From NCBI GenBank assembly GCA_004022145.1, contig RCNU01000004.1: DNA of 64,000 bases; one strand, 5' to 3'. Below are positions 17,979 to 59,112 of the stretch, one piece after another; within the stretch, counting starts at the first letter, position 1, and each line of letters starts with the position of its first letter. The notes beneath the pieces are model-generated. The model saw only the letters and a list, made by a program, of their open reading frames with translations, did not search any database and was not told the origin of the DNA. The translations under genes and the position numbers were made by a program. The DNA is from Paecilomyces variotii (Eukaryota).

Positions 17979-19257
17979 ATGTCTGCTCCTTCTAGACAGG
18001 AGAGCGCCTCGAAGCTCATCTCGCGAGAACCATTGGTACGGGATATCGCGTAGCCATACTTTGGCGGGTTCCTTTCTTCTTTGTCGGCTGGATTGTCCAG
18101 TCGGATTTTGTTTACTTATCTTTGTTAAATCATCCATCCCATTTGGGATGTTGCTGGAATATTATATACGTCTCTGAGCTGACCAGAATGTCGGACCGTA
18201 GGATCCTGCTGAGGCCAAATGGATAAGGTTGGTCAAATGCACCTACACTGATCCGCTAGGAGTACAGCGGATATGGGAATCGGCCGAGCGACAGGTGAGT
18301 TCATAACTAGATTGTCCTTCTGATATTCTTGCTACAGTTTGAAGTCTTCCTGTCGTGTCATTCCCTGTAATTATTTTCATATGTTGCTCAGATAAATGCA
18401 AGGTGGATGGTGTTGATCCGCGTGGTTGATGCCCTATTGGGAACGGGAGATGTTTGCGTGGAGTTTTGTTGCAACTACTTAAGAGTTCTTCTCATCAAAG
18501 CGATGTGGGATGTTTATCGAGACTCTATTTGAGCCACCGTCTTCGGTTAAAACCCCAACTGCCATGACACAACCATCATTTCGTGTCCTTTTGCCAACGA
18601 AGCTCACATATAAGGACCTTGCTTGGCCTGAGTGCTAGGGACAATCGAGTATGGATCATGAAAATAGTTGATTCATTTGCTGACGTGACGTCTTCCTCAA
18701 CAGTCGCGCCCAAAGAACGCGCTCATTGACGCCGTAGGAATTGTTGCACTCCTCCAGAAGGACACCGGTCCCGAATTGCTCCTACAGAAACAATACAGAG
18801 CCCCGCTTGATAAAGTCACTATCGAGGTTCCCGCCGGCCTCTTAGATGAGGGCGAAACGGCTGAGGAATGCGCCGTGCGCGAGCTAAGAGAAGAGACTGG
18901 ATACGTCGGAGTCGCCGAGAAGACAAGTACCATTCTGTATAATGGTATGTACTCGAATGTGCTTCGACATAGCAACATTGTAATCGTTTGTAAATCCTGA
19001 TATCCGACTCAACAGATCCCGGATTCTGCAACACAAATGAAAATCTGGTCCACGTCCGCGTCGATATGTCTCTACCCGAGAACCAGAACCCAGAGCCGCA
19101 GCTCGAAGACAACGAGTTCATTGAGTGTTTTACCGTGCCGGTGAACAATTTGTTCGAGGAGATTAAAAAGCTCGACAAACAGGGCTATGCAATCGATGGT
19201 CGAGTCGGCTTACTAGCTGAAGGAATCGAGCTCGCGAAAAGGCTGGGTCTGCGGTAA
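17979..19257 (+). CDS. YSA1: ADP-ribose pyrophosphatase (Ysa1/NUDT5-type Nudix hydrolase), 4 exons
   Basis: Exons 17979-18035, 18202-18294 (AKWIRLVKCTYTDPLGVQRIWESAER), 18704-~18944 (QYRAPLDKVTIEVPAGLLDEGETAEECAVRELREETGY, the Nudix box) and a last exon DPGFCNTN...LEDNEFIE. Confidence 0.88.
18369..18669 (+). ncRNA. Candidate structured intronic RNA element in YSA1 intron 2
   Basis: Nested complementary segments: 18369-80/18658-69, 18387-91/18628-32, 18398-404/18616-22 and 18406-11/18572-77, plus inner hairpins. Family not identified. Confidence 0.45.
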
Positions 19258-21746: not shown

Positions 21747-23953
21747 ATGTCCACTTGGACCTCCCTCCCAACTACCTCTTGCGTGCATAAATACGCTTCT
21801 GGGTGCTTGCTCCCAACCCAGTCTATCTGCTGCTTCTGTGCCGACTACTGCAGCAGCTCCTCTGCGCCTGGCTATCTGCCAATCCTCGACGAGAGAACTA
21901 GAACCGCGTATAACTCGACGCGCTACGCCAAATATTGCTGGAAGTGTCAGGGTCAGTATTTGCAACCGTACTAACACCGACACGATTCCTTGGTTTCTGC
22001 GTCTCCACGTTCGTTGGCCCCCCTACTGTTTCCTATATTGCTATTCACCAATTCAGTAAATACGATTTTTCTTTCTTTGTCTGTACAAGGCTCGATAGCT
22101 CCTTTCTGTACACTTAACACTTGTGTGCACTCGCTTATCAACCATTCATTTCTAGAATACTGGGGCGCCCGACACGCCTCGCAGTTCCGTCCAGCTTCTC
22201 TAGCGACTTCAAATCTTACAGCGAACTTGCCAGAGATTCATTCGCGCAGCTTGCATTCTGATCCTAGATCGCAAGCTGCTGCCTTCGCGGGTTCAGGAAT
22301 TCCTTCTGTTCCTGGCGGGTCCCAGAGGTCTCTCTATCCCCGTTGCAATAATATAACGGCTCTCAGAGAAGAACTCCAAGCCATCAATACTGGAATTGCC
22401 AGAGCTCTCTGCAGTCTGCAAGATCTTGGGAGCCAGCTGTCCTCTTACCGGTCCTTACAGAGCGTCCAAGGCATCATGCCCTCAGCCAACATGGAGACAG
22501 TTCAGCCTGCCGGCTTGAACAACACTGATCCGCAGATATCTACAGAGCAAAATGCGTACAATACAGAGATGTGGAACCAGGCCCATAATACTGCTCATCG
22601 AACTTCAATCAGTACTGCGCCCTCTGAAACGCCTAACAATGCTGAAGGTCCGGTCTCTAGCTCCTCCGCTTAGATCTCATTTCCATTGAATGTGTTATAT
22701 TAACTGTGCAGTAGAAACCCAAAATGGGAATGCGCCCAGAGTTATGGCGCCTTTCTGGACTGGCGTGAATGGCCCATCTCCCGCCCCAGTTTCGCAGCAG
22801 TCAACTACTACATCAACTTCTGCGGGCCCCGGGACCGAATCTGGCAATAATGAGACTCCAACTCACGGTGCATCTACTCACGAATGGCGTCCAGCCGTAG
22901 CGAATAGCTGGGCGGAATATAACCGTATTGAAACCCACAGACGCTCACAGGCACAAACCGCTACCCAAGTACTGGGAGTGCCGACGCTGTATGCTAACAA
23001 CCATCAAGCCTACCAACATATGGCGGGAACCTTGCAGCAACTAGGCCCTCATTTTGTGCCTCCAGGATATTCACTCGTTCCGCAAGCTTCGTTCGGATAC
23101 GCATCTCCAGCCGAGACACAACATGCATCGAGTTATAGACTGCCCCCTCTTGCCTATCCCCGCGCAAATCCACATGTGGCCCTTCCACGTCCGGAAATAT
23201 CCAGCTCTGTCGCTCAGCAGCGAGGGCATGAAAGTCAATCCTCTGATGGAAATATCACAATCGGATCCGGAGCAAACCCACCACAGAATCTGAACAGTCG
23301 TCGGCGTGCAAGGCGCCCGGATGATCCAGGATTCCAGCACTCGAGACGTCCCTCCCCTCCGCAATATGAGGGAATTGCAACACAGCCGACAAACGCACAG
23401 TTCGCTGAGATGCCAGGTCCAGTTCCAGTTCCAGCCGCTGGAACTTACGTGTCCTATCCGGCACTCACTGCACGCCAACACGCTTTGATAACGCGGCAGA
23501 TACAAATGAACAGTGTTCTGCGCGCTATGCGCCCTGAGGATGTCGAAGCTCTGCGAATGTATGAAGAGGGTATTGCTCGAGGCAGGCGCTTTCATACGGC
23601 ACACACTGCTGCCGAGGAGCCTCCTTCGAAGGGCCTGGACAACCAGAATGACGGGAGACCAGAACCTAAAGAAGCGGAGGAGATGAATGTGAGCTTGGAA
23701 TGCAAAGTTTGTCTGAGTCAACTCGTAGATACAGTCTTGATTCCCTGTGGTCATGCTGTTCTCTGTCGTTGGTGTGCAAACCAACACATGCCATCGAGCA
23801 GAGCCGACCATACACGTCCCAAAAAGCCCGCGGCATGTCCAATGTGTCGGAAGCCCGTGAAACAGAAGGTGAGTATTCCCGATACTGAATGTACGTGTAC
23901 GGTTGGGTCAGATTATCCTGACATCGATCTAGTTCCGAATCTACCTATCTTGA
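21747..23953 (+). CDS. C-terminal C3HC4 RING-finger protein (putative E3 ligase) with a Cys/His-rich N-terminal exon
   Basis: RING CKVCLSQLVDTVLIPCGHAVLCRWC...CPMCRKPV. Terminal micro-exon 23933-23953 (FRIYLS*). First exon 21747-~21951 (CVHKY...CCFCAD...YCWKCQ) splices in frame to EYWGARH at ~22155. Confidence 0.8.
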
Positions 23954-26383
23954 TCAATCAGCGGTCGTTGACCAAGATCTATCGACAGTGCACAAGGAAA
24001 CTTAGAATCCATCAGCAGTCCCTTTCTCATCCTTGTTTTTTTCTATGCATTCGCATTTTCTTTAGGCTTGCATAGCATGGCGTTACTGGTGTTCCACGGT
24101 TCATGCTCTACTATCCATTACCAGATAAGGTGCATCAATGCCCGAGTCTACTTTGCACATGGTTTCTTTTCGTCCACTAGACGACATCGAATAATAGCAC
24201 CGGCGCTCCCTTCTCCAAGTTCTTTCTTTAGCACAGCGGCAGCTTGCATCATCTCACGAACCCCCCAGGCTCATCTTCTCATTCTCTGTCAAAAAGGGCG
24301 TAAGTGTCCAATCTCACGGGCGCATGTGTCTCAATGGTTTTACAATCTCTCTTCTTCTTTTCTGCTTTATCGGAACAGTATTTCTATTTTTACGACTGTA
24401 CGGCCTCCTCATCAATTCCAATCCATTCCTTTCCAATTCACGTTTCCAACTTGCCTTCCCCCTAAGAAAAAATAAAAAGCAGAGATTGTTCGTCGTCTGC
24501 AGGTGAAAGACTCGTCAGAGATAATGCACTAATTCAGCCAATGCATCATCCTAACTGCAGTTAATCTCCCTGTTTCATCATACATGCTGCCTAAATCTGC
24601 TCAGATTGTCCCTAGCTAGATACTTGGTTAGCAATACACGTCCTTTGAACAGATTATCGTCTTTAGTTTATCACCCCGTATGGATGTATAGCATGGTCTA
24701 TACGTACCGATCATGTCCTGGTCCCTTAGTTTTAAAACGATGTCGAATATGCAGTGTAGCACTATGATCCTGCTGCAACACTACGGTCCAGCATAACATC
24801 GATGTCTCGTAAATTGTTGATTCCTCGACGACAATATACTCCTACTCAGGTCTTGCCCATATGAAGATTATTTACAGAAGGCCAGATGAGATAAGTAAAA
24901 GATAGATCGAGCTTCTGAATTAGCACCTTAGTCACCTGCTATAAGATGCCCTTTCTACTCGTTCCATATTACATGTAGGCTAATTCTTAGTTAGCACTAT
25001 ACACGGTTAAGTGTAAACAACAGTTTGATATTGGATATATTCTCCCATGAAGCAATCAAAACGTGATATATCCGGATATATTAGAATGAATAGAGTAATA
25101 TAGACTTCATAATCTCTTGTTTTGTGTACGACCACTTGCCGTTCACCGGATTTCCTTTTCGGGATGTTCTACCTAGACGCACTTGCGAGATATAGATACC
25201 TATAATGCTTCCCCGTCTACTTTTCAACATGATCTACCTACAGAATATATTTCAAGGTTGATTTACCACTCTTTGAAAGACGCAATTTTTGCAAATCATC
25301 CCTGAACTCCCGCGGTCTTGACTGCCTACGTGATCAGGCTGCAGCTGGAATGGCCTCATGACAAATGATGAGGTGGGATGATGAACAATATCTCTCGAAG
25401 GATCGCATGGATTCTAAAAAAGTCCGCTTAATCTTATTTCGGCTGACCGGGGGCGCTAGATTGGTGTCAGACGAGGTTTTGGGAGGCTCGAGGGTTGTCG
25501 GCAATGAGATATACCGCAGTGAAGATATAGCTATGGACTAGTGGTGGTGTTGAACAAGGTTTCTTGGAATCCGGAAATGAACGGAGATATCGTGATGGGG
25601 CTATAAGCCTTATCTATTCACTATGAGACAGCCTTATGTTGTGCGCCAAGTGTAAGTCTAGAGTACCCAAGTAGGCATGGATCGGATACAGTGCGCAACG
25701 CTCGTGTCAGCATGCCAACGTGGAGTGAATTTCCATGCATAATTCCTGCTTCGATGACATGTCAACAAAGGGAAGTTTCGGCAAGACCGTGTTCTAGAAC
25801 CTTGAGTGATATAGTAGATAAAAGGACCGATTGGAAATCAATAGTCTGACCCTCGGTGTATATGTCATATGTATACTGTAGGATCTGCTGCATCTGACTA
25901 TCTACAGTAATTATTACGAGATGCCACGAAACTAGAAACTCACTGAACACGAGAGAATCTGAACTTTCACGTCATAAAAGAGGCGTGGAGGTGCACATGG
26001 CGGGGGGGGGGGTTTGCATACATGCAGGCAGGTCATCCTGTAGGTAACCTCATCAGCCTGCACTAGGCCACAACTCTCGGAGCTTAGTTACCTACTTATA
26101 TGACAGATGAAACGTACGGATTTCTGAAGAAGGGTGGGGGCCCTTTCTTCAGCTGTTCCTGTCAGTGTTTAGCTTTCTTTGCGTTTACGTATGAGGCTAT
26201 CATTTCGAGGGCGAGCAGCAAGACCTGCAACTAGCCGTCAATATAGGAGGTCATGGGGAGGCTGGATCTCGCTGAGAGTGTGTAGGAACTGGTCAGCTGT
26301 GAATCTAACCGGCAATCCAATCCTCCAGGATCAGTTGCAAGGGGCTCCCGCAATTTTGTGGCTCGGTCATCTTGAAGATGTTA

Positions 26384-26820
26384 ACATAATTCCCTACCGA
26401 CCGGATCACCCGCCCAAGCGGATCAGTGCCGTATTACATACAAAATAGCCCTTTTTTAAACCAAAATATCTCAACAACCATATGTCTAGTATATATAATA
26501 CTTAATATATAGCTTTCTATAATAGTAAACTTTCATATATTAAGATTTTAGGCTCTAAAAATTGCTTATTATCCAGGTAATATAAATTACTATTGTAATT
26601 TTCATAATTATATTCTACTTAAGATATCTAAAGAATGGTAAGACTTAAGCAGATAAAATTAGATATATATAATCTTAATAATATATATTTTGTATATACC
26701 TATTCTGATAACCTTTGGATACTTGGTTGTTGAGATATTTTGGTTTAAAAAAGGGCTATTTTGTATGTGATACGGCACTGATCCGCTTGGGCGGGTGATC
26801 CGGTCGGTAGGGAATTACGT
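26384..26820. mobile_element. MITE-1: 437-bp non-autonomous pogo/Fot1 (Tc1-mariner) element, Vader-like
   Basis: 97-bp TIRs (26384-26480 and 26724-26820) with 2 mismatches, starting AC(G/A)TAATTCCC. TA at both flanks (26382-83, 26821-22). AT-rich non-coding core. Confidence 0.93.
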
Positions 26821-27475
26821 TATAACAAATTAAAGAGTCAATATCAGCATTTACCGCTTTCTGCATAGCGTCCGGCCTTATCCCTGGTCAGGTCAATTAT
26901 ACACCAATTATTATCTTATCATTGACCACCGAAGGAATCCTTATCTAATGACCTATGTATCGCCATTATTCTGGTTGCCTGCAGACCCAGGCCGCGGCCG
27001 CCTTATGTCTGCCCTAAATGTATGATTGGTATCACAGCAAGTGTGGTAATAGGTAACCCCGATCTTTCCCGCCGCCACTTTCATCATCTGGAAGAAAATC
27101 AAGATCGATTCTTATAAACGATGATATTATAGATCTGTTCCAGGAAATCGCCATGCTGTAGGCAACTGAAGAGACAAGAACTTGTATAAAACATATTAGA
27201 CATCCAGCTCCGACCAACTAGGAGTTCTCCTTTTCGGTCGAAGGCAAAACCCATTTCAAATATATCCTCTCTATAGCGGGAGGAAAGGTCCGCATTGAAC
27301 TAGGCAACCGCTAGTTGCCTAGTTGCGATAGACCTTCTCTTGAAGCGCTCTCTCCGGTAGGCTTAGAAAGCCCCACGTTTCCGAACTAAGACTAACTACT
27401 TGATTAACATAGGGTCCTGATCCTCATCCAATAAAAAAAAAGACCTGCACATTGTTATGTGTGTAACATACATTA

Positions 27476-27913
27476 ACGTATTTCCCAGCCGACCTGGCCA
27501 CCTGGGCGACCTGGCCAGTGCTGTATCACATACAAAATAGCCATTTTTTAAACCTGGATATCTCAACAAGCACAGATCTAACACATATGATATTTAAGAA
27601 ATAGCTTTTTAGAATCGTCCTTATATATATAGTAAAATTTCAGACTCTAAAAACTATTTTTTTCGCGATGTAATATAAATAGGTAGTGTAATTTTGGTAT
27701 TTATATTATTTAGAAGATACCTAGAGAATAAATAAGTTTAAATAATTAAAATTCAGCCTGTATATTTTAAATATCATAAACTTTATATATACCCTCGTTG
27801 ATAATCTTTAGATACGTGGTTGTTAAGATATCCAGGTTTAAAAAATGGCTATTTTGTATGTGATACGGCACTGGCCAGGTCGCCCGGGTGGCCAGGTCGT
27901 CTGGGAAATACGT
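27476..27913. mobile_element. MITE-2: 438-bp non-autonomous pogo/Fot1 element, sibling family of MITE-1
   Basis: TIRs of about 95-105 bp starting ACGTATTTCCCAG. TA at 27474-75 and 27914-15. Core is colinear and homologous with MITE-1. Confidence 0.93.
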
Positions 27914-29030
27914 TAGTTCGCATGGATTATTGCATGGATTGAATCAGGGTGAAACTGGTATCACCCGCATTATTACGATCTGGGCCGCATCAGGTCCCCG
28001 CAGGTCGCCGAACAGGCGACCCTGTTGACAGCTGTATATAGCTCATATAATCGGTTGAATCTCTTTATCTTTTCAAGGCATATAATACTGAATGCGGCCA
28101 AGCGCATCCGATTTTCAGCCGATAGGTAGTCTTGCTACATAACTACAGACAGGTGTCATTATTGAGTTGGCCGGGCGTAATCGATTCACTTATCTGATTG
28201 CGCCATTGTTAATGATCAGTGACGGAAGAAGGCAGAGGTTCTGCTCATTAAATGCTCATATCCATGTTGAGATCAATGGCTAATAGAAAGACTTGGTGTT
28301 TTCAGAGTTTTTACTCTGCCGCCACCCATCCAATTGCCGCGTCGATGTAATTCCGCGTGTTGGTAGATAATAGGATAATAGAGAAAGCCAATGGCGAATC
28401 TGTAACAGGCAAACATGGACGGGAGAAGATAAAAATAGAAGGCTAGCTATGAAACCTAGATTATCCTTCCATAACTCATCATGTAGTGAAGCACCCCCTC
28501 TTTTAAAAGAAATGCGCCCCGAGCGCAGACTACGGGCTATAAGAGGCATTGTTAGTCTTGATAAAACAGGAAGGTGATTAAGATCCATCATTATATTGAA
28601 GCCTATAGTTCTATGATCATCATTCCAGCCTTCCCTCGTCCCTCAAGTAAGGGGCGTCCGATAGGTAGATGCCTTTACCAAGGCTATCAGGCTACAATTT
28701 ATCAGCTGTTGGATCGATATCCCTTACTTCCTGTGTTTTCAGCTGTACTTTGAAGCAATTTGCCTCCCTTCCTCATCTCAGACGTCAGTTGGTGACGAAG
28801 TATGATACGTCTGTATGTTCAGATACTTGTATCGTATTTCATTTCGTTTTTTCCAATTTCTGATCAAGGCAAGGCAGGTCAAGCAAGCATAGGGCGTAGT
28901 CACAATAAAATACGTTACAATGAGTTAGAGAGCCTGACTGGTTTGTGGTCCGAAAGTTGAGTAAAGGTGTGGAAGATATTTCTGGGAGCACAAATCACGT
29001 CATAAGCTGACCTTCCTCAGGACTTGGAAG

Positions 29031-29079
29031 CTTCTATGCTTCTAGAAAACTTCTATGCTTCTAGAAAACTTCTAGAAAA
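29031..29079 (+). repeat. Short tandem repeat, 19-bp unit CTTCTATGCTTCTAGAAAA x2 plus a partial copy
   Basis: cttctatgcttctagaaaa cttctatgcttctagaaaa cttctagaaaa. Confidence 0.8.
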
Positions 29080-32000
29080 TCATTCACCATCTAGGCAGCA
29101 GCTGGAAAAGCGAAGAAAAGAAACTCCATAATGTACATTCGACAAGCAGTACCAAGTTTAAGGTATGTCATAGAGCGCGTGCAACAGTCATGACAAGTAC
29201 GAGGTATATACTCCCAGAGAAAGTCCACAGCTGCATTAAATACATATCTAGAAAAAAAGAACAAAGAAAGAGATAAACTGACGTTCAGCCAGTCAGATGC
29301 GGCCCTACTCCGTACTTTTGGCCGCGGCTAGACTCGGCTAAAGTACCTGCATATAGTACCATGCGTGATACAGGGGCACGCAGATCCGGGGTATTTAGAT
29401 AGTGGAGGTAAAAAGCCATCTTTTTGTCTGACGTCAACCAAAATGAGGACATTTACAAGATTCAAAAGCTATTACTCAACCCTATACAGCTCATGGTACA
29501 GTTTTACCATCCGTCGGAGTCCGTGTCCTCAAGCTCATGTAACCTAATGATCATAGTATCAGTCTGCTGTAGCCTAATTGTCACTGTATCGTTCTGCAAG
29601 GAACAGTGGTGTCGTACGAGTGCATTGGAACATTTTATTGCCCTGATATGGCTAGCTAACTTCACTTGGATCAGATCTGTGATCCCGCTGCTTATCCGAT
29701 ATCAGTGTCGTACAAGGCTACAGTAGTGGGTTAGTACTTATTCCCCTATGAGTGCACACCGCTTTGTGTTGGCTGAGCAACGAAGCTAAGTCACAAAGAA
29801 CTGCGTTCAATGCTCTTGACATCGAAAGCTCCATTCCATCTTATAACGCTCTTTGTAAGTAAGTCAATGGCGGTATTCCTCGGGGAAACTTCTTGGGCCT
29901 CATCGAGGTATGTTGTTGATGATGGGCTTGCTGAGGAAGATCGTTCGACTCTTCGGAAGGGACAATATAGTTAATGTCGGAGTCTACCTACAGGCAGACC
30001 TCTTGTCGGGTTTCTCCCACGCCTTCTAGCTCCACCAACAGAGCTAAATACGCTGAGCTAGTTGCTAAAGAATTTCAAGCTCAGCGAGCTTCGCTTCAGA
30101 TATAATCCAACAATAATCAGTATAGGAAACTCTGTATCCCTAGTTAGTTATGTTCGTGTACTTAGATACTCGGATCACTATAACTAAAGACAGACGCATG
30201 TTTTCAGGAGAGCTCTCCTCTCTCAAGCTGCTTCCCCGGGACATGCATCCCCAGCCCACTGGATCTGAGGGCATTCTAAGCCAAACGTACTTGATTTCTC
30301 ATTGCCGCATGATAAGTCGCTCTGATATTATCGAGAAGTTGGATAGTCTATGGCGATCAAATTATATGCCGATAATCCATAACGGCGTAAAAGAATATCT
30401 TGACCCATGTCAGGTGCACCTAGCTAAATACTGCATTAGCCAATAGCATGCTCCGTAACATGCTGGTTGTGATATAAGCATCTGAGCTTATTGCAAGCAC
30501 ATGGATAGCAATGTTTCATAACTATGTACCTGATCACAATGGAAATTATCATGTTCAATTTGTTTCGGATGAAACGCGCTCTCTCAACGAAAATAGACTA
30601 GGTTTGCTACGAAGGTGTCATATAGCCCTGAACCTTGAGAGACAGACTGTATACACAGTGGATAAATGCTCAAAAATTGAATGCGATTGATGAACGGCAC
30701 CTTTTCTCTCCTGTGGCAAAGACAGCGACCTATATTCTGACGTGGTCCCAGAAGAAACAAGAATCTTGTTGCTATTGGTCAAAGAGCAACGAACTCTTTT
30801 CTCCCGCAGCTTGGGACATACAAATTCGTATATTTATGTTTAAGTATAGTATCTGAATACTCCAAGTGACCATGGCGATTGGAGAAAGAACGCTTTTGCA
30901 ATATTAATGCCCCAATTGAAATTTCCGAGACCATGGCAGAAAGGGAATGTCAAACAATTGGTGCTCAGGCGCCAATCATACGTTGTTCCCTTGACCCGAG
31001 ATCCCTGTGCCTATCTATGCCACTCCTGATCTCGGGCAAGGTTGACACGTAAGTAGTATCAGTTAGGTCTCTAAACCGGTGACATATGGTTTCACTACCG
31101 TAGGAAGTAAGAGGTTGCCTGCAAGTGACAGGGCGATTCTGGCGTGAGACAGAAAAGCCTATCCAGTCTAGAGCAGCGCCGACTGACTTCACTAGCATGC
31201 ATTTTTCGTATGCAAGTCATTATTGTTGTTGCCTATGATCGTGTTCTTTTATGAAAGTAGGTTGGCTACGGCTCCCGGAATTCTTGGCCGCAAACCGGAG
31301 CATATGAGCCGGTTGGTCCACCTCGTATTGCGTTCAACTGGTTGCCGTAGCGCAATTGCTAAGTATAATAGCTCTCTGGGACCGGTGCCTAAAGGATGGA
31401 GAGTCATTTAATAAGTAGAGAGGCTGATCTCCGGTGCCTAGGTAATAGTCAGTCTCTTTTAAGCGTCAGTTCTAACTCCCCGGGCCGGGCTCCACTTAAG
31501 CTAGCTGCAAAAGCACCAACAATAAAATAGGCGACTGCATCGGCCTTTGAGAGGCGGTAGGGTAGATAAACCCCTAATGCTTATGACAGACCGTCTGGAC
31601 AGCTGGCGGACGCGAGGCGACAGGAATAATGCGGTGAATGAGGGCCTATTGCAAGAAGAGGCGGCGGAGATAGCCAAATCCGCGTTGTCTTTGGGCGATG
31701 GTCTCGTAATATATGTCGTTGCCTCGCCGGATCGCCATTAGTTCTCAGTTATCCTTGGAAACCTTCTCGTAAGGACTGACAATCGTCTACCGATAATCAG
31801 AATGACTAGTATAGCCTGGGCGTAGAAGGAATTGGGCCGTATTCACGCGCGTATCGTACACTGCTGTGTACACCGACGCAAGCCCGACAGTACTGCTAAC
31901 CGCAAATAAGGTGGTCATCCTCGGGCTATAGGCATTGCTGTGCTTCTCGTGTCAGTAACTATACCTCTTCGCTTATATCGTGTCTTGTTCATACCGGTCT

Positions 32001-33427
32001 CGTTCCAATGGTCTCTTAAGCATCCGCGCAAGGCTGGCACTGACAATAAGATACTGAGAAGTCTTGGAAACGGATGAGTGGGACAAGTGGAATGTATATG
32101 CGCATTGATCTTGATGAAAAGCGAGGTATAAAACACAGAAAATATACATGAACGGTACAAAGGAAGCCACCGGCCGAGCGCAGTGCAAATGATTCTATAT
32201 CGTCCATTCGCCCCAGGGACTCTGATCCCAGTCAATCATGCTGGCCATCTGGAAGGACTGGTAATGCGAAGCTGGATATAGCACACGAATCTCACGGATT
32301 TATCTTATGCTGACAGGTGACAGTGTGCGATCAGAAGGACAATATCTGTACAGGAACATATAGTTAGACAACCAGGCTTACTCTAGAACAAACGGGGTGT
32401 CAAACTCGAATAGGGTTAGATGAGTGTTGCAGAAGACATCACTCAAGTGAGAACAGCCACTTTTGAGATCTGTGAACCTCTTATAAGATTGGTGAGGCTA
32501 GGGCTCTATGCAACAGCCTACTACTACCGATGGCTGCATGTGACTCTATTAGTAGAAGTGGTAGCTACGCAGGGGCCCCCACTATGGGCTGAGTAAAGAA
32601 GGAGATAGACAGTCAGTTATAGTTAATTCGAATCTGCTATGTTGGTCATGAAGCTATATGACATCCGGATAGGAGACATTATTTCCGTGCACCTGGTTCT
32701 CATATAAAGCTGGGTAATGTGCACCGGGTGGCTGGGAGTTAAAAGACGCAGTTCAGTTAGCGAGCGGGATGATTCCATACACATGGTACTGGGAATTACC
32801 CCGCCCTTCAGGATAAATGAGCTTAAAGGATTATTGAATAGTTAACCAATACTACTGCTGCTGAATAAAAAAAAGTTATTGCAGAGTTATTAGCGATACA
32901 ATACATATATTTGTAAATGGAAGTCGACTGTAAATGAAATACCCGATCGAATTTTTGCAGAAGCTTTTATTACATACCATACCTAACGGGTAATTTAAAT
33001 GTCATATCCGAACAAAGACACTCCCTTCGATAACAATTTTTCGGTCGCAATGGTCCGCCTTGTCACAAGGCAGCTAGCCATGTCTCTACCATAGATGAAG
33101 CTACTCTAAGGGCTGGCACATATAACTACGTCCTGGCGTCCCAGAATTCATTTTGAAGCATTAAGTCTGCACGTTAAGAGGAAATTCCATTCTCTTCGGT
33201 AAGTCCAAGAAGTCCAAGCCCTCTGCACTCACTTTTCGGCTCCTTCGGTTCTTCTTGTCTGTCCTGCGATTCTACAGCCCGAAGTCGGCAATGAGACCAA
33301 TATGCTTACAGCGCTTCCCCCACCTGCGTCATATACTCTTATTTGGCCATATATGTTTCCTTGCTAGCTCATTTCTGGACTTCTACCTTCTCAGTTGCGT
33401 ATTGATCAATCACTGACGCGTAATCAG

Positions 33428-36041
33428 TGGCCAGTTTGGATGATGCAGTTACACTGGAAATGAATGAATCTATCAAACGAGCGCATCGAAAACAATTCTT
33501 AAGAAATCACCACAGATTCAGCAGTCCGTTTTCTGCGGGAGCTGAGTCAAACGCTGGAAAACAACCTATCCAGTAAGATCTGTCATATGTGTGCTCTGAC
33601 CAGAGATCTCTCTGTACTTTGTTCTGACGATTAGTACAGGCGATCATTCAGTAGCTCTCTATCCAAAGATGGCCATTCTAGTGTTTCCTCGACCAGTAAC
33701 TATCATGATGGTGTCCTCAGTCCAGCGGTCCCATTAGGGCGACCGAGATCTGCATACGCCTCACCAGACGCGCCTCGTTTGCAGGATCTTGATCTGCATG
33801 GAAGGAGTAGAAATCCTGCGGAACGCTCTTTCACCGCAAAGAAAGATCACAATTCGCGATCGCCTATCTCCAAGGCTAGAGTCCGGAGCGCATACGAGCG
33901 CCGGAAGAGGACAGCTACGTCTGAAGAACGTGGAAACGTAGGAAGCCCAGTGAGGATACGAAGGACAGTCTCTACTAAGGATCAGCCACGGAAACCGCAA
34001 GAATCGGGTAAATATGACCCCTACATGCGAGCGCGCAAAAATATCTCTTTCAAGAGGAATCCAAGCAAGCCTGACGATGAAAACTGATCTAGGGATGGCT
34101 ATAAATCCTTTAGACATGGATGATACCGGGGCTGTCTTGGCGGAAAACTGGCACGATGCTGCAACAAATGCAGTTTCCGCGAAAGCGCTGGATCGCTCCG
34201 GTAACACTCAGGCTGAGCATCATAATGTGACCAATAAATCTGAGCGAAGATTGTCAAATAGCTCAGCCAGTGGTATGTTTCTCCAACCGGAAACACACCC
34301 CATCACAGAGGATCAGTTGGTCAACGAGGTCCGCGGGATATATGCTGGATTGGTAATGGTTGAAAAGAAGTGCATGGAGATCGATAAACGGCAGTCTCAA
34401 TCACGGGATGCACTTGACGATCGTCAATGGCAAGCATTGATTGCTTTGCACCGCACGCTCTTGCATGAGCATCATGATTTCTTCTTAGCTTCCCAGCATC
34501 CCTCCGCAAGTCTGGGTCTGCGAAGATTAGCCGAGAGATATGCTATGCCAGCGCGCATGTGGCGCTATGGGATTCACTCATTTTTGGAGTTACTGCGGCA
34601 CGGGCTTCCTGATTCATTGGAACATATGCTGACCTTCATTTATATGGCATATTCTATGATGACACTCCTCCTCGAAAGTGTGCCAGCCTTCCAGGATACC
34701 TGGATAGAATGCCTCGGTGATCTAGCAAGATATCGAATGGCTGTGGAAGAAGTAGACATGCGGGATCGAGAAGTCTGGTCTGGTGTGGCACGGTATTGGT
34801 ACAATAAAGCTGCTGATAAGAATCCGGACGTGGGAAGGATACAACATCACCTCGCTGTGCTGGCGCGGCCAAATATCGTCCAGCAGCTCTTTTACTACAC
34901 GAAATCACTTGTCAGCGTACAGCCATTTCCTAGTGCTAAGGAGAGTATATTGCTGCTCTTCAACCCGCTTCTGGATCGTTCGAGGCCTGTCAGCGAGCGC
35001 TATCCAGCAGCCATTGCTGCATTCGTCAGTGCTCATGCCACATTGTTTGTCAACGGCTCGATCCAGCAGTTTATCGAATTATCAGACAAGTTCCTACACT
35101 TACTTGACAATTACATAGCCCGGAGCGGGACACTTTTCCGCGAGCATGGCGTACACGTGGTGTGCTCCAATTATGCGGCTATTCTAGAGTATGGTCAGAA
35201 GGATGCCATCATTCCAATTGAGTTTTCCCCTGAAAGGACGCAGCATCTGGATCAACAGGAAGTATACCAGTCGGCCCGAGAATTCTGGAAAGCCTCAAAC
35301 CATACAATGCCACGTGAGGCTCCTACCCTTCTCCGGGAAACTGCCTCAACAAAAGCAGACAGCGCATTCTCCAGTTCAGAAGAAATTCTCGCCCATGCAT
35401 CTTATCTATCGTTTTCAACGTTAGCGGTCATTCTTCAGCGTCTAGGTGACAAGAACGTGCTTCCAAGTGTCCACGTCTCACTAGCATTTTTATGGTGTTT
35501 TGCATTGAATCCCAGGGCCATGCTTCATATCCAGCAATACGTGCCTTGGGTACGTATTGCTAGCTTCCTCAATACATTAATTCGCTCCGATATCGACATG
35601 GAAAGAGTTGAGCACGAAGAATTCCCGCATCCTGAGCCTGGAATAGCTGCACAGTTACCTGAAGACTTCCTTATCCGTGGTCAAATGTGGAGCCAACTGT
35701 ACCATCCAAAAGGCTTCTTTAGCAGCTGTACCGGTGAAGATGAGGAACGTTCAATTGAATTCCCATCGATTATCGTTCCGCGAACGCATCGGTGCTTGTG
35801 GTTAGGAATGCGCATCGCGTCGGTAAGTGCTATGGCTTATCTATTCTACGTTCTCACTAACCCATATGGCTTTCAGCTCGAGTGCTGGATTACATATAAT
35901 CGTGAAACGAGGACCTTTGCGGCGACAGCATTCGCTTTCGACCTCGAGAACACAATGAGACAACCAAATATGATTGATCGGAAATCGAAAACTTTATCAC
36001 CAGATCCGAAAGACAGAGATACGAAGATGACGGACGTGTAG
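33428..36041 (+). CDS. Fungal Est1/SMG5-7-type TPR-like DNA/RNA-binding domain protein with a long disordered N-terminus (5' end uncertain)
   Basis: PETHPITEDQLVNEVRGIYAGLVMVEKKC, LHRTLLHEHHDFFLASQHPSAS, ECLGDLARYRM, GRIQHHLAVL and LPEDFLIRG motifs. Upstream exons 33428-33572 and 33640-34007 join through canonical introns (34008-34092 restores the frame). Probable last intron near 35823-35877. Confidence 0.8.
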
Positions 36042-36486
36042 TTGCTCAATGAGTAGTCATTCATATGCCCTTGATGACTAGGACAGCTCTATCAACCATG
36101 AAAGCGTCAGATAGAGGTACTGTATGTGTATGCTCCCGATATTCTCATCGTGCCTCAAAATTGCCTAACTTCAACGCAGAACATCTAGTTTGTCACAGCT
36201 AGAACTATACGCCTCGACTATCTATGTAAGGAGTCATGGTCTGATCAATTTACCCTGTATACCTTTTGGGATGTGACAGTTAACCATCAGATCGAACTCT
36301 TCTGAAACATATCGAACAGACATAGCACTGGACTCTATCCTTTTTTTTTTGTTTCTTAACTACGCACCACTCAATATTTAAAAGCATGAAAGACGCGCAT
36401 CCAACGGATCAAGAGAAACTGTGATAAATGAATAATCGTAGTAGAGCTTAAAATGCAGATATTTATAACGTGAAACATAACGCCCC

Positions 36487-38520
36487 CTATTCATCGAGAA
36501 GAAAAGGAAGATCTGCCGAAGGACTTATTTGCTCCTTGCAATTCTGAAAGCCAGCACCAACAAAGGCTGCATCTTCCTCAAAATATAGACAATCCCGGTA
36601 TGCTTTGGTGGCTAGATCTTCTTCTATCTGCAGCCTCCATTCCAAGAATTCTTTCATGAGCCTGCTCAGGTCTTGCGATGCACGGGTCAAAAGTCGCTTT
36701 ATTGGTTGAGACCCGCGTTTGAGTTCAGCGAGCAAGACATGGACAAGGTCCGTCCTTGTCGACAAGGGACATAAGCGAGCTGCAGCATGTCTTGCAAACT
36801 CTTCTCCACCGAGAACATCGATGAATCGGGAGTTTCTGATATGGTGGACTTCTTTTAGCATGCCACTCACCGAGTAAGCGGAGGTTCTTTCTGGAAGCGC
36901 TGATAATCCTGCATCTGTGATATACTCCTCAAGTTGCGAACATGCTTCTGCTGTTTGGAGCAAGAAGTTTTCGAGGCGCATGACCTCGTCGGATTTCTGT
37001 TCGATGTTGTATTTAGGGTTGGAGAACAGGTATTCGGCTGTCAGACTAGCATACATGCTAGTCCATTGTCTGGCTGTCCGGTCGAAGCTTATGCGGTCAC
37101 TTTTGAGCTGTAGTAGAATATCCTTTTCTACAACGTGCATTGGATCTTGAGATGGCTTTTTCAAGAGCTTCCAAATTGATACAATCCATAGCAGCAAGGT
37201 CTGGTCCGCGCACCAGGGACGATTCTGTGTAATAAGATCCAAGAGGCCAGGAACTGCCTCACCCGAAGTCTTCGAAATATTGGGATGGTATATTGCTGTT
37301 TCGAATTTCCATTGCGGTGGTTCCATTGGATATGTTCTAGGAATTTTGATTCGAATATAGAATATGCCGCCCTCGTATGGAGAGTTCACTGGGCCCTCAA
37401 CCACAGCTCTCCATTCGTATATATTATCTCCGATTGGCGCCATGGTGCATCCTCGATTCACATCAAGTGGGTTTATCGAAGAAAAGTTAAGCAGAAACCT
37501 TAGCTCCAGTCTCATCCTGCGTTCTAGACCGATACTTTGACGGTATGGCCGTAGATTTGCTAAGATGGCCTCGCAGTGCTTCGTATCTTCTTTCCGGATA
37601 TGTGAGATGAGATTACCGCAACCAATCCACAGTTCCCTGGAAGTTTCGTGTCTTCCACTTGAGAGGAATGGATTTAATTCAAGAGTATCCACCAGATATG
37701 TGTCAATGTATTCGTTGGTGTAATCTGAGCTGATCAAAGAGGGGTTGACAGTTGATAAGAAACTTCCTATGCCTTCCAAACCCTCTTCGTTGTAGATAGC
37801 CATGTAAGGCGAAATCGTAGCTCCATTATCCCCATCAGTCGGCCCATCATGAAAGGGTGAACTGCCTGTCTCGTCTTCAACCGTAGAGCACCGCTGGGTG
37901 GCAGAGTGGGTATCGTTCCTTTGATATACCACCGATATAGACTCGGAGATGTATTGATCCGAACAAGAGCTTATTTCCTCGTGAATAGGCTTTCTATGTT
38001 CCAATTTATAACGCATCTTTGAGAGACTCTCGAATCTGTCGTTCAAAAGCGTCATATCATTTATCAGAGCACGGAACTTCTCTCTGTCACGTACGACCCA
38101 ACGAATCCGATGCGGAAGAGTGTTTGTCCTGCGGCCTAGACGTCCGTATGTCATAGGCAGCATGCGGCCAGTACCTTTTGACCGCTTATCACCGGATAGA
38201 TCAAGTCTGTTTAGACTATATTGTTCCATGATCGAGGCGCCATCCGCAATCAGCCGCTCCATTCTTGTGAAAATTGTCTTGACAGATGGGTCTGCCTGCA
38301 AAGCTCGTATCATTTTTGCTTCTTTCTTGGGCCGCCGATAGTTGTTGTATACTTGCACCCATTGCATAAATCTGCCACGTTCAAGTTCGAAAAGATCTTG
38401 GATGGTTTTGTAATCCTCATCTCTGTTTCCAGCGTCGGAGACATAGTTTAAGAGGTCAATGATGGTTGAAACAAATCCTGCGAGGCCGACGATACTTAAT
38501 GTGAGACCCGCAGGATCCAT
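36487..38520 (-). CDS. HeLo-domain protein fused to a ubiquitin-conjugating (UBC/E2) fold lacking the catalytic Cys; intronless, 677 aa
   Basis: The N-terminus MDPAGLTLSIVGLAGFVSTIIDLLNYV...DYKTIQDLFELERGRFMQW...RIRWVVRDREKFRALINDMTLLNDRFESL fits the HET-S HeLo pattern. E2 motifs ERRMRLEL, DNIYEWRAVVEGPVNSPYEGGIF, IPRTYPMEPP, IYHPNI and FDRTARQWTSMYA. Confidence 0.82.
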   Translation of the reverse strand: MDPAGLTLSIVGLAGFVSTIIDLLNYVSDAGNRDEDYKTIQDLFELERGRFMQWVQVYNNYRRPKKEAKMIRALQADPSVKTIFTRMERLIADGASIMEQYSLNRLDLSGDKRSKGTGRMLPMTYGRLGRRTNTLPHRIRWVVRDREKFRALINDMTLLNDRFESLSKMRYKLEHRKPIHEEISSCSDQYISESISVVYQRNDTHSATQRCSTVEDETGSSPFHDGPTDGDNGATISPYMAIYNEEGLEGIGSFLSTVNPSLISSDYTNEYIDTYLVDTLELNPFLSSGRHETSRELWIGCGNLISHIRKEDTKHCEAILANLRPYRQSIGLERRMRLELRFLLNFSSINPLDVNRGCTMAPIGDNIYEWRAVVEGPVNSPYEGGIFYIRIKIPRTYPMEPPQWKFETAIYHPNISKTSGEAVPGLLDLITQNRPWCADQTLLLWIVSIWKLLKKPSQDPMHVVEKDILLQLKSDRISFDRTARQWTSMYASLTAEYLFSNPKYNIEQKSDEVMRLENFLLQTAEACSQLEEYITDAGLSALPERTSAYSVSGMLKEVHHIRNSRFIDVLGGEEFARHAAARLCPLSTRTDLVHVLLAELKRGSQPIKRLLTRASQDLSRLMKEFLEWRLQIEEDLATKAYRDCLYFEEDAAFVGAGFQNCKEQISPSADLPFLLDE

Positions 38521-50742: not shown

Positions 50743-51924
50743 TCATACGCCCATCGTAAAGTCATGCTCGATGCCGGGCGTCACGCTGGCGATAAACTTG
50801 AGGAAGACAACAAGGTACTGGTCGACTCGGATGGCATTCTGCTGATCGTCGTCCTCGTGACCTTCGAGCACTTCCCACTCGTCACCACCGTTCCCGCCAG
50901 CAGCGGCGACACCAGCAGCATGACCGTCATTGGAAAGAGAGAGGCCCTTTGTGTCGTCCACTAGGCCCTCCAAGCCGCTATCTGCCTTGAGCTTTGACGC
51001 GTCTCCAGCGGACTGGGCCTCCTTAAGTTTCTGGCGGCGGATCCGGAGGGCGGCATCGGCACGATCGAGGAGAGTCTTCATGACGGAGGCGTGCTTGCAA
51101 GGGTGGACACTGGCCATCTTGACGCTACCTTCGAACCAGGGGAAGTCTTCGAGGGTGACGGTCTTGTCTTTGTAGTCACCGACAATGTCTTCCATCATCA
51201 AATGTGGAGGAAGAGGCTCGGAGGGCGAGAGGTAGCCCGATAGATAGAGTCGAGGAGTGCGATAGAAGTTGGAGTATGTGATGTAGAGAGTGTATGTTCG
51301 AAGAGGCCTGCATATTGGAGGTCGTTAGTAAAAACGGCCATATCAATCAGATAAAAAACGGATCTAGATGATGGGAATAGAGAGCTGCAGATATACTTAC
51401 GCAGTCGTGCTCGACTTGGCCGGCTCTCTGATAATAGCTTCCTCATCGTCATCCTCATCCTCCATATCCGGAATCTCCTCCTCTTCCTCCTCGCGCTCGC
51501 CCATATTTCCAGCCTCATCCACCGTCCGAACATCTCTCATCTTAGCTTCCTGACTGTCGGCAAGCTCCCTTCCTCCGCCAGTTCTCAACCAACCGTCCTC
51601 GTCACCGCCGGCTCCATCGCCCAACATATCCTTGATGATAACATCATCCTGACCGGCATCTCCCGCAAAGTTATCGTTTAGTCGGCGATGACACGGCACA
51701 CCGCGGGTGACAAGGAACTGCTTTCCAGGAGGCAGATAAGAGACGCGTTTGGCGGGAGTGGAGGCATCGGCCCAGGACCAGGACGGGAACTTGTAGACCA
51801 GATAGTCACCGGCCAGGACGAACTCCTCTGGCGTAATCTGACCAGTAGAGCGAAATGTGGATGTCCGTGAGACAGGCGCGAGGCGATCTCGCCAGGTGGA
51901 CAGCGTAGAGTGGAGGATGTTCAT
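50743..51924 (-). CDS. ATG3: Autophagy E2-like conjugating enzyme Atg3 (one intron near 51310-51400)
   Basis: [56 protein letters not shown], catalytic HPCKH and [26 protein letters not shown]. Confidence 0.96.
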
Positions 51925-52733
51925 ATCGACGTTGCTGCTCCCTGTTCTCCTTCGTCGATGCGGGGTACAGACGTTATGGGAACAGTCGATGGAAAGGTGT
52001 TCTTGTGCAAAGTAGCAGAGATGATACCAGGGATACCTGTCACTCGAGTTGTATGCGGACGACTGCGACCTCCCAGTAAGCAGGCAGTATAAAGCAACCG
52101 GAGAGTTGTGGCGGTTGCTCGATCACATTGGAGGACCTTCTGCCTGCACTTCGCGGGGATGACGGGGGGTTTCTTGGCGTCACCTGCCTGCGGTGGCTGA
52201 CTGAGGCTGTCACGCTCAACAGAATAATGATAATAATTAACTAAAATGATGGGATCCTTGGATTCGATTTACCAAAGGGACAGTTTTTGATAGGCAGACA
52301 TATCCTGATTCAATAGACGGCTTAGTACTATATTACATATCTGGCTCTAAAAGTCGCCACCATCCGGTCTGCATAACGTGCACATCTGTATGGTGAGTCA
52401 AGGCCGGTGTCTCTTATAAACTACAGCAGACCAGGAGTGTTATAAGCGCTATGGCATTCCCCTGTCTGTACGTGACCATGCATGTCAGGATTATGATCAC
52501 AGCAATGAAGCTGGACAAGTAGACTTCAATCCCAGTGCATGGTCGAGGTGTCCGTAGTCAACATATAAGTTGCAGCTGCTGGACTATTCTCTTGTCCTGC
52601 GCTTGTTGCACCATACGCACAATAGTCCGATACCGTCCGCTCGAAAGGCCTCGAGCAGCAGGATCATGATATGGCCCGTGCAGACAGCAGATACGTTACG
52701 AAGACGCACTGCGGTCCGCATCACGTCCGATGC

Positions 52734-58344: not shown

Positions 58345-59112
58345 GCTGCATGAAGAAATGGTTCCTGGAAGAAATGTTGATTCTAAGAGTGATGATGATG
58401 TATAAACAGTATAATAGATTGTTTCAATTAGTATTATGCAGCGAGTCCGTCCATTCCTGTAGTCTAGAGCTACTGTATAAGCATAGACCCGTCACCCTCT
58501 ACGCCCATTACCCCTCCAGTTAGTGCCTTATGCGCCCCGTTAACGTGAAAAGACTGTGCCATCAGCGCCTACTCTAAGATCATAGATGGGACTCGATCTT
58601 CGGCAGTCATAGCGGTGTGCATCGCCGTTACAAAATGCGGTCAGGCACTGCTGCTATTCTTGCTCAGGGTGGCGGTGCAATTATCACCCAACAACGCCCC
58701 TTGACGCTCTCCACAATCCACATGCGCTTTCAGCCTTGGTCTACGATGCAATTCCCCCCTGCAGTGGACAAAGAAAGGTGCGACTGCGCCATGTGGTCTT
58801 TCAACTAACGCTCTGTCGTGTCGGGTCATCAAGCGAACGAATCACTGCCTTTTAAGACGCCTTATAGCCTCGCCTGTTGAAGGTATTCTGGAACAACGTT
58901 GCTGTGATCGGGTACCTAAGCTACAGAACAAATCCTTTCCCAAGATTTGAGAATATTAATTATTTCTTCGTATTTGACAAGTTCCCGTAGCAAGCTGCGT
59001 TGCTACATTTCCTTTTCCTTTTTCCCTTATCTACCAGTCTTTCTTGAACGCTCTTCCTGCTTGAGGACTGAAGTATTCTCATTCCTTGAGTTACTTCCCT
59101 TACTCACTACCT

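Follow-up and report, generated by a model that had tools for sequence, protein, structure and literature searches.

The window analysed here is a stretch of 64,000 nucleotides from Paecilomyces variotii (contig RCNU01000004.1 of NCBI GenBank assembly GCA_004022145.1), and its minus strand carries, at 36487–38520, a gene whose product joins a HeLo cell-death domain to a ubiquitin-conjugating enzyme (E2) fold lacking the catalytic cysteine. The coding sequence (CDS) is an intact open reading frame (ORF) of 677 aa, counted from the first ATG, with its stop codon at 36487–36489 and no intron. The product, P0001, is identical over its full length (100%) to the NCBI entry 'hypothetical protein DTO027B9_2381 [Paecilomyces variotii]', so that the deposited annotation likewise shows the gene without introns. 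Contigs from RNA libraries are collinear with the genome over 36429–38456, without any splice joint in the CDS. The intronless 677-aa ORF of the original prediction, made from the letters of the window, is confirmed by these two lines of evidence, and its coordinates were correct to within a few residues. The gene is intact, selectively maintained and present in RNA libraries, and it encodes three parts: the HeLo domain, a pseudo-E2 and a C-terminal helical bundle. In one NCBI assembly a protein of 156 aa (P0020) corresponds to residues 336–491 alone (window 37045–37515) and starts at M336; it reflects either a different gene model or a start codon that may be used internally.

Domain layout of the HeLo-E2 protein

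In a Pfam scan the HeLo family PF14479 matches residues 5–188 (37957–38508, minus strand, as for all parts of the gene below) with an E value of 7.6e-21 and 75.3 bits against a cut-off of 23.2. The family-wide invariant W54 and the near-invariant L90, Y101, W141, D145 and F149 are all present. The domain begins with a hydrophobic helix at residues 4–27 (38440–38511), reading GLTLSIVGLAGFVSTIIDLLNYV, which was recognised by sequence reading, is helical in the model and lines up with the helix at the N-terminus of HET-s (2wvn). The 2wvn structure itself matches the N-terminal 331 residues weakly (E 0.038, over residues 2–166, the hydrophobic helix included). The N-terminal hydrophobic helix and HeLo-like block described in the original prediction are thus borne out by a profile match above its cut-off and by the alignment to HET-s.

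The full-length AlphaFold model, for which 17 sequences served as input, lays the chain out as a helical HeLo region, a low-confidence linker, a long helix at 292–322, the first E2 helix (332–348), the E2 sheet with its remaining helices, and a helical tail. The HeLo region contains helices at 4–59, 66–101 and 146–185, with block values of the predicted local distance difference test (pLDDT) of 36–83, mostly 53–83. The linker (residues 199–298; 37627–37926) has pLDDT below 50 and is poorly conserved, with 30–35% identity to the relatives P0003 and P0004. The helix at 292–322 (37555–37647), which we call the pre-UBC helix, is common to the whole HeLo-E2 family; its identity within the clade is 60–65%, and G302 and D312 are near-invariant across the family alignment.

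The E2 fold occupies residues 331–492 (37045–37530). The UQ_con family PF00179 matches residues 355–486 (E 1.5e-25, 89.9 bits against a cut-off of 27), the closest solved structures are UbcH5/Ubc4-type E2s (E ~1e-25 to 1e-26), and Foldseek superposes the modelled E2 part on UbcH5 structures with target TM scores of 0.84–0.90 and a root-mean-square deviation of 2.1–2.9 Å over ~159 columns. The earlier claim of a complete E2 fold therefore stands on both the profile and the superposition. With UbcH5 residue numbers taken from the match P0128, in which HPN lies at 75–77, the H75-P76-N77 motif corresponds to H412-P413-N414 (37279–37287), kept in the alignments to E2s and invariant in alignment A2, while D87 corresponds to D428, W93 to W436, F62 to M399 and S94-P95-A96 to C437-A438-D439.

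The catalytic cysteine, which in active E2s lies about eight residues after HPN, has no counterpart, there being no cysteine in residues 415–436. Eleven residues (SKTSGEAVPGL, S416–L426) separate HPNI from LDL, compared with seven in UbcH5, and none of them is a cysteine; the Cys85 column holds L426 in the HMMER alignment or A422 in the BLASTP one. The original prediction of a retained HPN, a missing cysteine before LDL and a short insertion was accurate in all three respects. The remodelled active-site loop, I415–L426 (37243–37278), is four residues longer than the canonical one, and similar sequence of equal length is found in P0003, P0004 and a Thermoascus locus; the N114 column of the E2 is changed as well. 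The nearest cysteine to this loop is C437 (37210–37212), which stands right after the conserved tryptophan in the UbcH5 S94 column. It is specific to the clade, being seen in all four Cys-less lineages, and its column is occupied by other residues in the Cys-bearing members. The S94-P95-A96 loop of UbcH5 is part of the E3-binding face, well away from the active site; M399 in the F62 column together with C-A-D in place of S-P-A would suggest an altered surface of the E3-binding type.

Since HPN is kept and the catalytic cysteine has been lost within a lengthened loop, the domain is read as a pseudo-E2 that, judged by its sequence, could bind but not conjugate. In this respect it resembles the pseudo-E2s of the ubiquitin E2 variant (UEV) family such as Mms2/Uev1 and Tsg101, which share a UBC fold without the catalytic cysteine. 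P0001 differs from them in retaining HPN and a Ubc4/5-like sequence and in being fused to a death domain, and the UEV family (PF05743) is absent from the Pfam families listed for it at E up to 1. The retention of HPN and of the Ubc4/5-like sequence points to a young loss of the cysteine, independent of the UEVs.

The C-terminal part, residues 493–677 (185 aa; 36490–37044), is a predicted helical bundle specific to the clade, in keeping with the helical extension of about 170 aa noted earlier. When it was modelled alone with three relatives (AlphaFold2), a helical bundle was obtained with pLDDT 69 and helices over positions 19–157 of the part. It can be aligned only inside the clade, the alignments to other HeLo-E2s ending near residues 491–496. 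Its invariant blocks, RNSRFIDV.GGEEFAR and the terminal SADLPF, are recognisable also in the broken Thermoascus copy described below. The tail has no Pfam match and no usable ESM Atlas match, and amyloid repeats of a prion-forming domain (PFD) were not found in this repeat-free, predicted helical part. A fold search against representatives gave a best Z of 12.5 (dynactin p150 helices), with 7.3–9.8 for plant coiled-coil (CC) domains and 8.1–8.2 for the four-helix bundle (4HB) of MLKL; all of these Z values lie within the range common for unrelated helical bundles, and the tail is assigned to no fold family. That it might serve as an oligomerisation or docking module is our guess.

The HeLo-E2 family and the lost cysteine

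The combination of HeLo and UQ_con is not peculiar to P. variotii. Among 43 long matches from two sequence searches that were scanned with Pfam, 30 carry both domains, and the named sources include Exophiala, Cylindrodendrum, Podospora, Thermoascus and Paecilomyces. The ESM Atlas holds one cluster with 51 HeLo+UQ_con proteins, all from Ascomycota where the phylum is known. A profile search with 24 HeLo-E2 proteins in a word-indexed database returned 16 proteins, of which one was new, plain E2s filling the candidate list. The database names of HeLo-E2 proteins include 'UBC core domain-containing protein' and 'prion-inhibition and propagation-domain-containing protein'. HeLo-E2 is thus a Pezizomycotina-wide architecture already visible in public databases, and the Paecilomyces protein is a derived member of it.

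Two of the 30 proteins, P0005 and P0017, end before the cysteine column. Among the 28 that reach it, 26 keep the cysteine and read HPN[IVF]xxxGxxC, the only two without it being P0003 and P0004, the closest relatives of P0001. With P0001 counted in, the cysteine is kept in 26 of 29 proteins: outside the Paecilomyces/Thermoascus clade every member whose sequence extends to the site (26 of 26) retains it, and all three Paecilomyces-clade proteins (P0001, P0003, P0004) lack it, so that its absence is confined to that clade. The Cys-bearing proteins of Exophiala spinifera (PV08_03353) and Cylindrodendrum hubeiense (G7Z17_g2699) show the same order of HeLo, linker, pre-UBC helix and UBC. Unlike P0001 they keep HPNIxxxGxIC[LA]D, and their tails are unrelated to that of P0001, whose E2 in turn keeps a Ubc4/5-like tryptophan in YEWRA that the other HeLo-E2s lack.

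The nearest outgroup is a Thermoascus protein, in a cluster that includes one named for T. aurantiacus. Its locus was read from metagenome contigs (L001–L005; gene at L001 3995–6121) and is collinear with P0001 over residues 1–535 in one frame. The active-site loop there reads HPNISRRTGETVPVLLD...SWCPDET: it is Cys-less and of equal length, and a cysteine follows the tryptophan as in P0001. As the Thermoascus locus has the same Cys-less and equally long loop, the loss of the cysteine predates the Paecilomyces/Thermoascus split and is read as a single lineage-specific event. Repeat-induced point mutation (RIP) was considered as the cause of this loss or of low GC content and was rejected, the RIP-type indices around the gene being ordinary (TpA/ApT 0.68).

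A single collinear BLASTP alignment joins P0001 over residues 1–491 to the Cys-bearing P0025 (E 9e-36), and P0035, P0053 and P0137 give single-stretch phmmer matches over residues 1–492. The original prediction had described the E2 as integrated into this particular protein; that view has to be given up, since the architecture is family-wide and P0001 is collinear with a Cys-bearing member through the HeLo and UBC parts alike. A tree of E2 domains was calculated from 64 domains, comprising 30 HeLo-linked ones, four from other fusions and 30 plain E2s (the first 30 of 31 matches of 140–200 aa), with P0005 and P0017 excluded because they end early. In it the Cys-bearing HeLo-E2s form a well-supported clade (98 in the Shimodaira–Hasegawa-like approximate likelihood ratio test, SH-aLRT), and the stem leading to the Cys-less clade is long, at 0.73 changes per site. 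A tree constrained to unite all HeLo-linked E2 domains was better by 13.45 log-likelihood units than a quick free tree (p of 0.81 in the approximately unbiased test).

Two further groups were seen in this material. The proteins P0008, P0009, P0011, P0013, P0014, P0018, P0015 and P0016 form a sub-family that reads ICADY after the catalytic cysteine and has an insertion of ~25–30 residues before the conserved tryptophan; it is a clade with SH-aLRT 100, and P0015 and P0016 have no HeLo match, perhaps as N-terminally truncated models. P0012 and P0058 are fusions of an F-box with UQ_con, their E2 sites reading HPNISKHGDIGVN and HPNVSRHGDIGID, so that the catalytic column holds no cysteine. The two fall side by side in the E2 tree and constitute a second, unrelated kind of pseudo-E2 fusion.

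Conservation, transcripts and genomic surroundings

Between P0001 and P0003 the identity is 61% in the HeLo domain, 30% in the linker, 65% in the pre-UBC helix, 72% in the UBC and 54% in the tail; the corresponding values for P0004 are 85%, 35%, 60%, 62% and 37%. The length of the remodelled loop is constant in the four lineages (P0001, P0003, P0004 and Thermoascus). The pseudo-E2 is thus constrained and is among the best-conserved parts of the protein. P0004, which is labelled P. variotii No. 5, is 55–57% identical to P0001 overall, and intact homologues of P0001 exist at 56–57% identity. The divergence is mosaic, with the HeLo domain of P0004 at 85% and its tail at 37%, and the opposite trend in P0003 (HeLo 61%, UBC 72%), a pattern hinting that diverged copies have recombined or undergone gene conversion.

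The 90%-identity cluster of P0001 holds 12 sequences, mostly from other P. variotii strains. The ORF of 677–679 aa is intact in all seven other full-length members, and six of the seven differ from P0001 by 1–9 residues; the seventh, P0170, differs at 61 positions, which cluster in the linker and tail. Another strain, represented by contigs of runs X5 and X6, has 20 single-nucleotide polymorphisms (SNPs) in the CDS, 17 of them synonymous and three non-synonymous (D107G, L470R and V513A, all three found also in protein P0171), and 15 SNPs together with indels in the 580 bases upstream of the gene. The resulting ratio of non-synonymous to synonymous polymorphism per site (pN/pS) is ~0.05, for 457 synonymous and 1574 non-synonymous sites, and it indicates that the gene is under purifying selection. 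The suggestion of a role in allorecognition, also part of the original prediction, is not supported: het-like polymorphism was not found among most of these strains, although a form only 55–57% identical (P0004) carries the same species label, the SNPs run 17 to 3 in favour of synonymous changes, no NLR (NOD-like receptor) or HET-domain gene occurs among the ORFs scanned in the 64 kb, and the tail is predicted helical, not amyloid.

The stretch is contained in eight runs on record as RNA. In two cDNA metatranscriptomes the contigs tile 36429–38456 without splicing; their poly-T loose ends at 36429, 37280 and 37688 are oriented as for poly(A) priming on minus-strand RNA. The end before 36429, seen in contigs of one run (X3), weakly indicates a probable 3' untranslated region at 36429–36486 with a likely poly(A) site near 36429. 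In contigs of the same runs the convergent neighbour is spliced (36121 to 36180, GT..AG) and polyadenylated. Ends of the poly(A) type, together with a neighbour that is spliced, make carry-over of DNA an unlikely source of these contigs. The evidence consists of contigs and not of raw reads, and presence in an RNA library alone is no proof of transcription; by the same token, parts of the gene uncovered in single runs were not taken as missing transcript.

The convergent neighbour is an EST1-domain gene on the plus strand (34014–36041), arranged tail to tail with the HeLo-E2 gene. Its intron of 58 nt (GT..AG, 36122–36179) lies 3' of the stop of the long ORF at 36041, and its poly(A) ends are near 36399 and 36475, so that the 3' ends of the two genes may overlap by a few tens of bases. 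The other flanking gene, from 40244, is RTA1-like, and the nearest RING-finger gene lies ~12 kb off at 22690–24075. These three genes were recognised in the ORF scan, and elsewhere in the window there are Atg3, SNZ, Rit1, aldo-keto reductase and fimbrin-type genes. The Atg3-type E2-like enzyme (Autophagy_act_C, two ORF pieces at 50746–52122, minus strand) is an ordinary housekeeping gene 12 kb from the pseudo-E2 gene. No NACHT, NB-ARC, HET or amyloid-motif gene was seen among window ORFs of at least 120–150 aa, a scan in which short exons could be missed; WD40 repeats occur at 1–3551, 33 kb away. An ORF with a T5orf172/MUG113 domain, of a GIY-YIG-like family, is present at 59065–60432 (plus strand). 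Nearly 10 kb at 24000–34000 have a lower GC content (0.40–0.46), RIP-type indices that are not extreme, and a single ORF of at least 120 aa (28280–28642, no Pfam match). The only 2-kb bin with a RIP-like signature is 16001–18000 (GC 0.42, TpA/ApT 1.20, (CpA+TpG)/(ApC+GpT) 0.92).

Possible control of a HeLo domain by a pseudo-E2

HeLo, the MLKL 4HB and plant CC domains are shared membrane-attacking executors of regulated cell death in fungi, animals and plants, and what differs between these systems is the control module, which may be an amyloid motif, a pseudokinase or an NLR. According to passages of PMC12881547 and PMC3689799, HeLo domains attack the plasma membrane through the extreme N-terminal helix; the former source further describes activation by a conformational change in the C-terminal or partner module and an evolutionary link between HeLo and the MLKL 4HB.

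Against this background the reading that we favour, with a probability of about 0.45 in our own estimate, is that P0001 is an executor analogous to MLKL and HET-S in which the pseudo-E2 would act as the regulatory module, and that it is a derived HeLo-E2 member with one old loss of the cysteine. The HeLo domain would be the membrane-targeting, pore-forming module, as in cell-death proteins of the HET-S type, and the pseudo-E2 and the helical bundle would keep it inactive, forming the end of the protein at which binding or regulation takes place. Once a partner is bound, be it an E3 ubiquitin ligase, ubiquitin or some other molecule that recognises the E2 surface, or once the protein oligomerises, the N-terminal helix may be freed and would insert into membranes.

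The likeness to MLKL of animals and plants is one of design: at the N-terminus a helical domain that attacks membranes, then connecting helices, and finally a dead enzyme fold as regulator. Because the pseudo-E2 of this clade could only bind, the protein would resemble MLKL in logic, the dead enzyme being a pseudokinase in MLKL and an E2 here. With HET-S/HET-s of Podospora anserina, which combine HeLo with a PFD, P0001 shares the N-terminal death domain followed by a C-terminal regulatory region. It is unlike them in that its C-terminal part consists of an E2 fold and a helical bundle without an amyloid repeat, and the sequence similarity is marginal (E 0.038). Both features that define pairs of the HET-S/NWD2 type, the PFD repeats and an adjacent NLR with a matching motif, were not found for P0001 in the ORFs scanned. 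The P. anserina HeLo proteins, for which the consulted part of PMC3689799 gives PFD, Pkc-like kinase, P-loop and Rho partners, offer a further parallel, the kinase, P-loop and Rho proteins being likewise HeLo domains joined to a signalling or enzymatic C-terminal domain; no UBC partner appears in that part of the inventory.

A number of points speak against the executor reading. We infer the whole mechanism by analogy; the full-length model is of moderate confidence only (pLDDT 60) and carries no domain-contact information; and no partner gene, either NLR or E3, lies beside the HeLo-E2 gene among the ORFs scanned. As for the derived position of P0001, the quick unconstrained tree set the Cys-less clade apart from the other HeLo-E2 domains, and by identity the E2 domains of this clade are nearer to plain Ubc4/5-type E2s (37–45%) than to other HeLo-E2s (~27–34%). 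This leaves early branching of the Cys-less clade, or replacement of its E2 domain, as alternatives that may apply. A separate fusion of HeLo with a Ubc4/5 gene in this clade, at which the free tree hints, is not preferred, as the constrained tree is better and the P0025 alignment is collinear through the linker and the pre-UBC helix. A single origin of the whole architecture is the better-supported explanation.

The more serious points come from interrupted copies of the gene. In the Thermoascus copy a TGA takes the place of the codon equivalent to K394, within the E2 sheet, and the tail lies in two other frames, the frame changes leaving no room for introns (68 nt where 54 are expected, and 79 where 72 are). 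Contigs L001–L004 are identical across the gene and all have the same TGA, and databases annotate only an N-terminal product of 396–413 aa. In some P. variotii assemblies the W445 codon (TGG, 37186–37188) is the site of a natural premature stop, seen as two pairs of shorter ORFs from Logan assemblies (P0172 with P0173, P0174 with P0175), in which L444 is the last residue of P0172 and P0174 and the remaining sequence follows in P0173 and P0175 without a change of frame. A relative in P. lecythidis is annotated with 315 aa, that is, with HeLo alone. These three cases together show that the gene is dispensable, and it has been cut within the E2 part more than once. Since such truncating alleles would leave the HeLo domain without its proposed brake, they are the chief argument that the data themselves raise against a simple brake model: either HeLo does no harm when released on its own, or the mRNAs are degraded or untranslated, or the brake model is wrong.

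The same alleles would be easier to accommodate if P0001 were a membrane-tethered, non-catalytic adaptor of the ubiquitin pathway, in which HeLo serves membrane association, the pseudo-E2 acts in the manner of Mms2, Uev1 or Tsg101, and no cell death is involved. The tolerated truncations that free HeLo, the well-preserved and constrained E2 fold with HPN, D428 (equivalent to D87) and W436 (equivalent to W93) in place, and the housekeeping-type neighbour genes all fit such an adaptor. We nevertheless regard it as unlikely, because the HeLo domains characterised in the consulted passages of PMC12881547 and PMC3689799 are all death or toxicity modules, the UEV family is missing from the Pfam matches, and a dispensable, clade-restricted gene is unlike that of a core pathway adaptor.

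Dispensability and patchy retention are often met with in immune genes, and they would suit an integrated decoy, as in the original prediction, or a guard. In this reading the E2-like domain would mimic E2s attacked by effectors of competitors, mycoparasites or mycoviruses, and modification or binding of the decoy would fire the HeLo domain. The fusion of a death domain to a host-enzyme fold near Ubc4/5 (37% identity over residues 358–491 in BLASTP; phmmer E ~1e-25) and the conserved length of the remodelled loop in four lineages are also compatible with this idea. Most family members, however, keep the cysteine, so the 'dead' state does not define the fusion, and the excess of synonymous over non-synonymous SNPs gives no sign of diversifying selection; the decoy must be considered quite improbable.

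Still less can be said for a determinant of heterokaryon incompatibility with deeply divergent alleles kept in the species. The mosaic P0004, so distant from P0001 for a protein labelled P. variotii and best matched in its HeLo part, would be the obvious candidate for such an allele, together with P0170 and its 61 differences mainly in the linker and tail. P0004 may, however, be a paralogue or come from another species of the complex, the cluster is otherwise nearly uniform and its pN/pS low, and an adjacent partner gene, a HET domain or an amyloid motif was not found among the ORFs scanned. We consider this explanation very unlikely.

The broken Thermoascus copy, the W445-stop allele and the short P. 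lecythidis relative could also be taken to mean that the protein became useless after the loss of the cysteine and is a functionless relic on its way to a pseudogene. This is just as implausible in our opinion, given the ORF intact in all seven other full-length cluster members and in homologues at 56–57% identity, the strong synonymous excess, the domains much better conserved than the linker, and the presence of the gene in RNA libraries. That the protein is still an enzyme, with C437 or another nucleophile of the new loop as its thioester site, is the least likely of these alternatives. C437, the cysteine of the RPWCAD stretch that the original prediction had named as a possible substitute, is indeed found and conserved in exactly the four lineages without the canonical cysteine, and HPN is kept. 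But C437 stands in the column of S94, in the E3-binding loop and well outside the catalytic cleft; the remodelled loop and the N114 column are changed too, and no E2 is known to have a relocated catalytic cysteine.

The executor reading may be extended from P0001 to its family. HeLo-E2 proteins could form an undescribed class of fungal cell-death switches in which the state of the E2 fold gates a pore-forming HeLo domain. In the Cys-bearing majority the gate would respond to charging with ubiquitin or to an E3, and in the Cys-less form of the Thermoascaceae to ligand binding alone. The Paecilomyces protein would then be the 'MLKL version', with brace-like helices and a C-terminal oligomerisation bundle. 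We put this extension forward as a speculation of low probability.

In the literature no paper was found that pairs HeLo with ubiquitin-conjugating or E2 terms, although supplementary tables of NLR or HeLo surveys might list the architecture. One apparent match was set aside, its text having matched 'Helotiales' and being concerned with PARP-Ubc fusions. As far as the literature was searched, what appears to be new is a HeLo executor whose control module is of a kind not yet described and, inside the HeLo-E2 family, a lineage-specific pseudoenzyme form.

If the executor reading is true, an E2 fold serving as the control module would represent a new control principle, tying ubiquitin signalling to HeLo-type death and wiring the ubiquitin system directly to a membrane attack of the necroptosis kind. 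The 'dead E2' occurs only in a small clade, where the gene itself is lost at times, and the mechanism is wholly inferred. At the same time, the clade around P. variotii, a common food-spoilage mould, amounts to a natural experiment, in which the architecture is the same, the catalytic cysteine is gone and purifying selection persists. Removal of the cysteine under such selection argues for a non-catalytic job of the E2 fold, and the natural stop alleles of the species provide ready-made truncations.

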